DNA of 64,000 nucleotides from Escherichia coli (GCF_024502345.1 NZ_JALDNN010000001.1); one strand, 5' to 3'; shown: positions 30,647 to 37,104, counted from the first letter of the stretch. Notes: generated by a model not told the origin, from the letters alone. Made by a program: numbers and translations.

Positions 30647-31012
30647 TCAGATACCCACAGCTTCACCCGCCAGACAGGGCGCGTCGTTGCAGTTCAGCAG
30701 CAGGCTGACCAGTCGACGGTCCAGCCCCGGAAACAGATCGGCTACACCTGTACGATGAGCGAAGGTCAGCACATCCAGCTCGGCCTGCGCACCACTCACG
30801 CCCGTCCGCAGGCGGTAACAACCGTTGCTACATTCAAGATCCAGATACATCAGCCGTTCGCGAAAATCGCGGTACAGAGTACGAGCAGATACACCAAACT
30901 CTGCTGTCAGCCTGCGCATATTCAGCGTTTCACCTGCAACGAGGCGACTGATAATCAGCGACAGCCTGATCGCCAGCCTGTCGTGGCGGCGCTCTGTCTG
31001 TGTCATTATCAT
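30647..31012 (-). pseudogene. HTH transcriptional regulator fragment (N-terminal domain of a YfjR-like regulator), C-terminally truncated
   Basis: 121 aa with [26 protein letters not shown], similar to the N-terminus of the WYL regulator at 37105. Confidence 0.55.
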
Positions 31013-31232
31013 TTCTCCATACGAGTTAACTGACTGAAAGGGTTATGATTCTAAAGAAGGGGTCTGACAGGGTATGTCCGGGGCAATAACTATTTTTCGA
31101 TGGACAGGAAGCCACTGCTCACTGGGTAAGCCGGGGTTTTTGTTCAATTAATCAGCAATACAAGAAGAGGTGAATTGACAGGGCATGTCATTCTTTAACG
31201 AGGCATTAACTTTTCAGATGCAGAATCTGAAT

Positions 31233-34431: not shown

Positions 34432-35626
<1,195 letters not shown>

Positions 35627-35815: not shown

Positions 35816-36184
35816 AATGAAATTACGCCCATGCCCCCAATCGGACTGCATGTTTATATCATAAATATCATTATATAACCCACATGTTAACTTCGGAGTA
35901 AAAATAAATGATCACCAGCTAATAAAATCACACCTTGCATGACACGCATTAAAATTAACGCCCCGGATTGGTAATATATACAACAATATACAACGCATCC
36001 AACCATCAACACACTCATCCATTGCAAGTATATAAACAACAATAGTCAATACACTCTGCACATATACACGCCCCCACAAATCAAACTAACAAGCATTCAA
36101 ATCAAAACCATAAATCACCATTTAATTACCTCATCAACCCAAGGTAAGAAACAACCCTAGATACTATACAGACAATAGGAATTT

Positions 36185-36799
36185 ATGATGCTTAATGATA
36201 TTTATCTTGATCAACGTCATGCCCCATTCAATACAATGTATCTGCAACGGATGCTTCGCGTGATTAATAACGCTACAGCACAATACCCACGAACAATGGT
36301 TGTCCGTGTAGACCTACGACTTCCTGATAACCACGATGAATGTAAGGCTGGTCTTATCTCTCGATTTATAGAATCGCTTAATGCAAAGATTGAAGCACGA
36401 TATCGAAGCAAACTAAAGCAGGGTATTCGATGCTACCCATGTCATTTACGTTACGCCTGGGTCCGAGAGGTTGGAGAAGTAAACAAGAAGTCTCATTACC
36501 ACATGGTACTCTTTGTGAATAAAGATACTTTCAACGGGTTAGGGGTGTACGGTGAAGATGGAACTGGATTAGCCAGCCTGATACAGGCAGCCTGGCTAAG
36601 TGCCTTACAGTTGAGCCCTCCCACCGGATATCGAACGCTGGTACATATCCCGGACAACCCATTGTATTACCTGGACGTCAATAATTTAGACTACAAAACG
36701 GTTTACGATAAACTCACTTTCAGGCTGAGTTATTTTGCGAAAGAGCGCACCAAATCATACAGCCGGAATGAACGCTCATTTGGCTGCAGCCAGTCCTGA
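36185..36799 (+). CDS. YagK/YfjJ-family protein (inovirus Gp2-like domain)
   Basis: 204 aa; position after alpA as in CP4-57; family assignment from memory of YfjJ-like sequences. Confidence 0.55.
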   Translation: MMLNDIYLDQRHAPFNTMYLQRMLRVINNATAQYPRTMVVRVDLRLPDNHDECKAGLISRFIESLNAKIEARYRSKLKQGIRCYPCHLRYAWVREVGEVNKKSHYHMVLFVNKDTFNGLGVYGEDGTGLASLIQAAWLSALQLSPPTGYRTLVHIPDNPLYYLDVNNLDYKTVYDKLTFRLSYFAKERTKSYSRNERSFGCSQS

Positions 36800-37034
36800 G
36801 ACAAAACAAACTAAGTCTATAAAGATTTTTTCAGCCTGGCTCTAATCGACTGAATCTCAGCATACTCCGCTTTTGAAGCCTTGACACGTCAGTTGTTCTT
36901 TCACCTCTGAGTGGCTACTCGCGACTGCCTGCAGGAGACTGATTATGTTATTGACCGCAAAATCCATTAACTGACTTTTCGACTTAATCTCCTTAAGTTA
37001 TGTGAGAAATTTGCCGATATGAAAACATGATCCC

Positions 37035-37071
37035 CCAGTCGCTACTGACATGCCCTGTCAGTAGCGACTGG
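37035..37071. promoter_or_regulatory. Perfect 16-bp inverted repeat with 5-bp spacer, 34 bp upstream of the WYL regulator start; candidate operator
   Basis: CCAGTCGCTACTGACA-TGCCC-TGTCAGTAGCGACTGG; not followed by a T-tract, so unlikely to be a terminator. Confidence 0.5.
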
Positions 37072-37104
37072 TAATCTCAAGGAAAAATTACAAGGAGAAC
37101 GCGC

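Follow-up and report, generated by a model that had tools for sequence, protein, structure and literature searches.

WYL-domain regulators are among the commonest switches found beside phage-defence systems. The two characterised defence-associated members, BrxR and CapW, are both repressors, and new ones are consequently annotated by analogy with them. In the stretch of Escherichia coli DNA analysed here, which has a length of 64 kb and is referred to as the window, a long perfect palindrome is located directly in front of a gene encoding such a regulator. This raises the question of what the palindrome is and, if it is the site of the regulator, whether binding would prevent transcription of the genes that follow or switch it on.

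A perfect palindrome upstream of a WYL regulator gene

The palindrome (CCAGTCGCTACTGACA-TGCCC-TGTCAGTAGCGACTGG) is an inverted repeat with arms at 37035-37050 and 37056-37071 that are complementary at 16 of 16 positions and separated by a 5-nt spacer, exactly as the initial annotation had described it. The end of the right arm (37071) is followed by 33 nt before the ATG of the regulator (37105). Among the inverted repeats of the window with a loop of up to 20 nt it is the longest perfect one, and the maxima in ten mononucleotide shuffles of the window reach 9-12 bp compared with the 16 bp of the real sequence. As a feature of the sequence it is both real and significant, and it can be placed in the known class of binding sites of WYL regulators. 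The protein encoded downstream consists of HTH_DeoR/HTH_11, WYL and WCX domains (Pfam), and its recognition helix is invariant in the regulator family, including both arginines (Table 1).

Two other kinds of element were considered and discarded. No second copy of the arm sequence is present in the 64-kb window with up to 3 mismatches allowed, and the intergenic region carrying the palindrome occurs in 19 of 5426 E. coli genomes, always in the same type of locus, which rules out a dispersed palindromic repeat of the REP or BIME kind. An intrinsic (Rho-independent) terminator is likewise ruled out: the stem is there (-29 kcal/mol), the T-tract that should follow it is absent on both strands, in agreement with the earlier remark on a missing U-tract, and a terminator scan of 36700-37200 returns zero sites.

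Table 1. Positions of the palindrome, the parts of the predicted promoter, the regulator gene and neighbouring features in the window
Feature	Position	Strand	Remarks
Second box CGGACA-taccc-TGTCAG-N10-TAGAAT	31048..31080	-	upstream of truncated YfjR-like WYL gene (30647-31012, minus strand)
Conserved upstream blocks TTAAG and TGCCGATAT	36993..37020	+	invariant in 8 orthologs; possible sigma-28-type promoter (hypothesis)
Full perfect palindrome	37035..37071	.	16-bp arms and 5-nt spacer TGCCC
Outer left arm CCAGTCGCT	37035..37043	.	pairs with 37063-37071; unconserved among orthologs, lineage-specific extension
Distal conserved half-site ACTGACA	37044..37050	+	about -40 to -34 from the predicted transcription start; kept in homologous loci
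Spacer TGCCC, 5 nt	37051..37055	+	family reading YNNCC on gene-proximal strand, asymmetric
Promoter-proximal conserved half-site TGTCAGT	37056..37062	+	about -28 to -22; positional equivalent of PafBC '-26 element' (PMC8635444)
Outer right arm AGCGACTGG	37063..37071	.	occupies the 9 nt from half-site TGTCAGT to -10 hexamer
Predicted extended -10 TGgTAATCT	37069..37077	+	hexamer TAATCT 37072-37077, 10 nt past TGTCAG; TG at 37069-70
Predicted transcription start	37084..37085	+	about 7 nt past -10 hexamer, deduced from -10 position
Shine-Dalgarno AAGGAG	37092..37097	+	7 nt before ATG
wHTH-WYL-WCX regulator, 292 aa	37105..37983	+	recognition helix S-E-R38-T-L-Y-R42-D
PDC-M09A 5' end, first downstream gene	38018..38064	+	cut by IS903B
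IS903B insertion, 1057 bp	38065..39121	+	9-bp target duplication
PDC-M09A middle fragment	39122..39487	+	
IS110-family insertion, 1362 bp	39488..40849	-	no target duplication
PDC-M09A 3' fragment	40850..41292	+	
PDC-M09B, 481 aa	41292..42737	+	
Third cluster gene, 840 aa	42774..45296	+	weakly similar to PDC-M09B

The inner box and its regulator

A scan of species-representative genomes with an alignment of 33 family members yielded 56 loci. The sequence ACTGACA-N5-TGTCAGT (with up to 2 mismatches) is found in about 20 copies in the 559 kb of fetched loci, nearly all of them 55-125 nt upstream of the point where the alignment of a WYL homolog starts, and the hosts include Enterobacter, Shewanella, Pseudomonas, Rivihabitans, Lelliottia, Providencia and three Anaerolineae (Chloroflexi) genomes. 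The association between box and regulator spans protein identities from 100% down to about 20-25%. It is also seen in all eight extra loci that were fetched by exact protein, from Hafnia, Citrobacter, Brenneria, Cronobacter, Pantoea, Pectobacterium and two metagenomic sources. A relaxed search of four further WYL homolog loci recovered ATGACA-N5-TGTCAG in one (L008) and CCGACA-N5-TGTCGT in another (L013), and the remaining two (L016, L017) are boxless even by this search.

The surroundings of the box differ from locus to locus. The gene upstream may encode an agmatine deiminase, a SRAP protein, an integrase, an MFS transporter, a flagellin or others, and the cargo downstream comprises PDC-M09A/B, an IetA-like ATPase, LeoA-like GTPases, a PDC-M40B-like protein or pairs of unknown proteins with about 470 and 1066 aa. 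The gene preceding the palindrome in the window encodes a Gp2-like protein, homologs of which are found by tblastn over the box-bearing loci in L001-L003 only. The unrelated upstream genes and the varied cargo imply that the site belongs to the regulator and not to the Gp2-like gene. Compared with E. coli G3/10 (L002), most of the Gp2-like gene (36165-36664) is 66-88% identical and the sequence from 36665 across the intergenic region into the regulator gene is about 100% identical, and this step in identity argues that the intergenic region travels with the WYL gene. The step is located inside the 3' end of the Gp2-like gene (36665-36799) and has the appearance of a recombination junction, at which a module of WYL gene and PDC-M09 genes would have been swapped into CP4-type islands.

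The part of the palindrome that is conserved is only the inner 19 bp, ACTGACA-N5-TGTCAGT. Among eight orthologs whose proteins are 72-100% identical, what stays invariant is the pair of core half-sites, the CC that closes the spacer, the T-A-...-T of the hexamer, the region of the start site (CAAGGAAAA) and the ribosome-binding site. Conservation does not extend to the outer 9 bp on either side. In a set of 41 unique sites the first three positions outside the 7-bp core show a symmetry of about 50%, which has dropped to near background by position 5 and stays there further out; symmetry that reaches 3-4 bp past the core would imply functional half-sites of about 10 bp, like those of BrxR. The perfect 16-bp arms are a lineage-specific extension common to the window and a Pantoea locus (L191), and four other loci (L059, L060, L192, L194) consist of the 7-bp core alone with no extension. 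The first reading of the palindrome as a regulator site is therefore supported for its inner 19 bp and unsupported for the outer 9 bp of each arm. Likewise the half-site does recur upstream of homologous regulators in unrelated contexts, as would be expected of their own site, and the palindrome is not absent from homologous loci. The conserved box is very probably the binding site of the adjacent WYL regulator.

Two smaller observations concern the layout of the sites. Extended arms are also found in L004, L007 and L193, with sequences that differ by lineage and are complementary within each; this pattern looks compensatory and exceeds the footprint expected of the protein. The spacer in turn is asymmetric with respect to the direction of the gene (Y-N-N-C-C), with the CC next to the promoter-proximal half-site and present at positions 4-5 in about 28 of the 41 sites.

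A fixed distance to the -10 element

In 13 of 18 loci a TAnnnT hexamer begins exactly 10 nt past TGTCAG, against a background of 0.0094 per position (binomial P=3.6e-23), and most of the remaining loci are off by one. The same N10 spacing is found in four of four extra orthologs when read by eye; the metagenomic loci were left out of these statistics because the pattern used to scan for them already demanded the -10. In the window the arrangement is TGTCAG (37056-61)-N10-TAATCT (37072-77). An independent mark of the hexamer comes from leaderless starts, since in 7 of 21 metagenomic WYL loci the N-terminus MRA[SD]RL begins 6-7 nt past the hexamer, which identifies it as a true -10. The box would thus span about -40 to -22, which puts the CA of the distal half-site and the spacer (CATGCC) where a -35 would have to be and makes such an element impossible there. 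A sigma-70 promoter scan of 36700-37200 finds zero sites. A TGn extension of the -10 occurs in 4 of the 18 loci, and most family members have neither a -35 nor TGn. Box and hexamer quite probably form a composite promoter that lacks a -35 and depends on stereospecific spacing. At some metagenomic sites a -10 is present on both flanks of the box, in the manner of divergent promoters.

As read from the sequence, the grammar of the half-site equals the published promoter grammar of PafBC, and the fixed N10 spacing between box and -10 is the new point. The PafBC-dependent promoters of mycobacteria (RecA-NDp), which work by sigma adaptation, have the consensus tGTCgg(N10)tA(N3)T and no -35, and their '-26 element' is read by R46 and R50 of PafB (PMC8635444). 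Half-site and spacing agree with those of the window, a -35 is missing in both, the architecture is wHTH-WYL-WCX in both, and the GTC is read in PafB by paired arginines four residues apart, to which R38 and R42 correspond here. PafBC differs in being a heterodimer that uses one half-site and needs RNA polymerase for DNA binding, whereas a full palindrome and a single regulator gene imply a homodimer in the present case. It also controls a DNA-damage regulon in place of a candidate phage-defence cluster, and the sequence similarity is marginal (E=5.5e-4).

DriD of Caulobacter and DdaA of Acinetobacter are homodimeric activators that respond to single-stranded DNA. The DriD site is ATACGACA-GTTAC-TGTCGTAT, in which R37 and R41 read the two guanines of G-x-C (PMC10853764); the box, always equally far from the -10, overlaps the position of the -35 in promoters without such an element (PMC13004042). 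The probe of a DriD-regulated promoter printed in the latter paper (labelled didA) contains TGTCGC-N10-CAATCT according to the reading made here. DdaA activates DNA-damage and defence genes and binds CGWCA-N5-TGWCG (PMC12392091); the defence genes under its control include CRISPR and restriction-modification genes. The inner core and the spacing are the same in all three (ACGACA-N5-TGTCGT for DriD, CGWCA-N5-TGWCG for DdaA and CTGACA-N5-TGTCAG here), and DriD also has a box in its own promoter. The differences are an outer half-site base that gives T-G-A-C here and C-G-A-C in DriD, a Tyr41 in place of Glu40 of DriD and a C-rich spacer (YNNCC) where DriD boxes are AT-rich. The regulator is furthermore about 35 residues shorter with an uncertain linker, the protein identity is only 17-22%, and its gene lies next to its cargo on a mobile island.

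BrxR and CapW repress BREX, CBASS and other defence islands. Their genes directly precede the defence genes, as the regulator gene of the window precedes candidate ones, and the promoter region of each regulator contains an inverted repeat whose arms are 5 bp apart; CapW is released by single-stranded DNA. Their sites were compared on the basis of pEFER DNA, which was read directly, and of positions quoted in papers. The E. fergusonii BrxR site (GAAACCTACTG-AAAAA-CAGTAGGTTGC, that is CTACTG-N5-CAGTAG) is located downstream of the -10 in pEFER with no TAnnnT at N10, the CapW sites lie over the -10, and the Acinetobacter BrxR site spans -51 to -27, overlaps the -35 and occupies the tip of a stem-loop predicted to be 70 bp long. 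Neither repressor has been reported to keep its box at a fixed distance from the -10.

At the protein level, a profile of the family compared with solved structures matches PafBC (E=5.5e-4), DriD (E=0.009-0.04) and BrxR of E. fergusonii (E=0.3), and CapW is unlisted. A phmmer search of the regulator against PDB chains gave zero matches and the N-terminal 77 aa alone nothing useful; by these searches the regulator does not group with the BrxR/CapW clade. Foldseek on an AlphaFold2 model (pLDDT 80) matches DriD best (1.7e-12), followed by PafBC (2.5e-11), BrxR (1.3e-8) and CapW (2.5e-8), with modest margins, and the linker that forms the three-helix bundle of DriD is modelled with low confidence (pLDDT 41-62).

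A homodimer of the regulator probably binds the two 7-bp half-sites, ACTGACA and TGTCAGT, at their 5-bp spacing, with R38 and R42 probably reading the G-x-C triplet of each as the arginines of DriD and PafB do. The WYL domain would sense a signal, probably single-stranded DNA arising from phage attack or DNA damage, and the dimer on its box, with TGTCAG exactly 10 nt upstream of TAATCT, would help RNA polymerase to start at a promoter without a -35. The outcome would be more transcription of the gene for the regulator itself and, where the locus is intact, of the PDC-M09 candidate defence genes that follow in the same orientation. Because the geometry of box and -10 is kept across phyla, the regulator would most likely work like DriD, PafBC and DdaA. 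We infer the direction of regulation from this likeness, and activation is favoured over repression with about an even chance of being the correct reading.

The upstream part of the intergenic region contains a further element that bears on the direction. TAAGTTAT-n11-GCCGATAT resembles the sigma-28/FliA consensus TAAAGTTT-n11-GCCGATAA (PMC2859248), and the conserved TAAG-N15-GCCGATAT could, on sequence grounds, be a second promoter with the box as a downstream roadblock. The TTAAG and TGCCGATAT blocks keep a fixed mutual spacing in the eight orthologs, in which the rest of the intergenic region has diverged, and their distance to the box varies from 14 to 42 nt. In the Pectobacterium ortholog the GCCGATAA is perfect and a flagellin gene adjoins.

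The main alternative is a repressor operator, as originally proposed, at which a ligand-free WYL dimer would block an overlapping or upstream promoter and leave on meeting single-stranded DNA, thereby derepressing its own and the PDC-M09 genes in the way of BrxR and CapW. The gene order is that of the two repressors, with the regulator first and the candidate defence genes behind it, the size of 292 aa is that of a repressor, and the site resembles those of BrxR, in which 5 bp separate half-sites of about 10 bp. The extended -10 of the window (TGgTAATCT) may be active without an activator, in which case a protein bound at -40 to -22 could equally repress. The Acinetobacter BrxR site also overlaps a -35, and a transcript from the sigma-28-like element would carry the box at about +7 to +43. 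Repression by simple occlusion does not, on the other hand, require the strict 10-nt spacing that is kept from Chloroflexi to Enterobacteria and that stereospecific contact with RNA polymerase would need. The box does not cover an otherwise complete -35/-10 promoter, since the -35 is absent and TGn is present only in the lineage of the window and a few others, so that most promoters of the family should be weak once derepressed. Half-site and spacing are those of an activator motif, the protein matches DriD and PafBC ahead of BrxR and CapW, by modest margins, and the E. fergusonii BrxR site differs in sequence and in position. Repression is accordingly a possible but less probable reading: the operator of the adjacent dimeric regulator is the part of the original proposal that stands, as the half-sites recur, and the repressor is the unproven and less likely part in view of the fixed N10 and the missing -35.

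A role of the palindrome as a hairpin is improbable, be it as a terminator or insulator without a U-tract against read-through from the Gp2-like gene, as a stem-loop in the 5'-UTR of a transcript begun further upstream or as a cruciform. The 37-nt RNA would be very stable (-29.0 kcal/mol for the plus and -29.9 kcal/mol for the minus strand), the outer 9 bp are complementary yet variable in sequence, and the Acinetobacter BrxR site likewise lies in a predicted stem-loop. What is conserved, however, is the specific sequence ACTGACA/TGTCAGT and not mere complementarity, the loci with only the 7-bp core would form a weak hairpin, the T-tract is absent and the predicted transcription start lies downstream of the palindrome, which leaves at most an added role for the lineage-specific extension. 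Rolling-circle initiators often act on hairpins, and the palindrome is found 236 nt downstream of the gene (36185-36799) for the 'inovirus Gp2 family' (YagK/YfjJ-like) protein, which could make it an origin-like hairpin or nick site of that protein. This reading is extremely improbable and was rejected, as the other box-bearing loci have no Gp2 homolog and the intergenic region goes with the WYL gene.

A tentative proposal, with somewhat below an even chance of being correct, concerns the WYL regulators of this clade that are found in defence islands, together with those resembling YfjR in CP4-type islands of E. coli: in the style of DriD and PafBC, and not of the repressors BrxR and CapW, they would activate transcription in response to single-stranded DNA. 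They would share one grammar, (C)TGACA-N5-TGTCAG-N10-TAnnnT without a -35, from Chloroflexi and Zixibacteria (before recA) to Enterobacteria. If this is true, infection or DNA damage would actively turn on candidate defence systems such as PDC-M09 instead of releasing them from repression. For an enterobacterial clade that is widespread, the 19-bp box with its fixed spacing to the -10 would then point to regulation in the direction opposite to that of BrxR and CapW. The rule ACTGACA-N5-TGTCAG-N10-TAnnnT may also serve, across many phyla, to predict which genes an uncharacterised WYL regulator controls and where their transcription begins; the YfjR-like genes of E. coli cryptic prophages are among the cases to which it could be applied.

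The island, the broken cluster and further sites

The region is an island similar to CP4-57 and CP4-6, with genes for a GTPase, a DUF932 protein (YfjQ), a YfjR-like WYL protein and Ag43 as well as antirestriction and YeeU-type genes. Its sequence shares 99.8-99.97% identity with E. coli PSJ-29 (L001) and about 97% with Enterobacter sp. R1 (L003). The intact reference has three genes behind the regulator in the same orientation, beginning 35 nt after it. PADLOC matches the products of two of them to PDC-M09A (E=2e-120) and PDC-M09B (E=3e-214), the defence role of both being that of candidates, and a literature search for PDC-M09 found nothing. In the window PDC-M09A is split by IS903B and an IS110-family element (Table 1). 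The candidate defence cluster is thus inactivated by two IS insertions with the regulator and its site intact, and the downstream operon of the original proposal is not intact here. The practical consequence of the mode of regulation is therefore small for this window. An IS5-family element further upstream (34432-35626) is a third insertion relative to E. coli PSJ-29.

A second box of the same composite form precedes the YfjR-like gene of the window, which has lost sequence to a deletion, compared with E. coli PSJ-29, and is truncated to 121 aa. Reports on YfjR describe binding that was undetected by ChIP-exo under standard conditions and a gSELEX target that consists of its own operon only, and neither result bears on whether YfjR activates or represses. 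About 110 nt upstream of the second box, at 31174-31192 on the minus strand, AATGACA-tgccc-TGTCAAT has the same TGCCC spacer as the main palindrome.

Outside the island, the metagenome scan gave 134 pattern matches, about half of which are without a recognisable downstream ORF or on short contigs, and many may be due to chance. Exact copies of ACTGACA-N5-TGTCAGT-N9-TAnnnT are located 49-86 nt upstream of recA in L093, L110, L116 and L173, the RecA of which is closest to that of Zixibacteria; the motif suggests a WYL-type, LexA-independent DNA-damage regulon in this group. The motif also precedes the genes of two protein families, which are possible members of the regulons of WYL regulators. 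One is a GST-like family of 202 aa, found in five loci (L085, L091, L108, L134, L183). The other is an alpha/beta-hydrolase-like family of 265 aa, found in eight (L118, L153, L154, L159, L160, L171, L172, L180), and in L153 its gene is divergent from the WYL gene with the box common to both.
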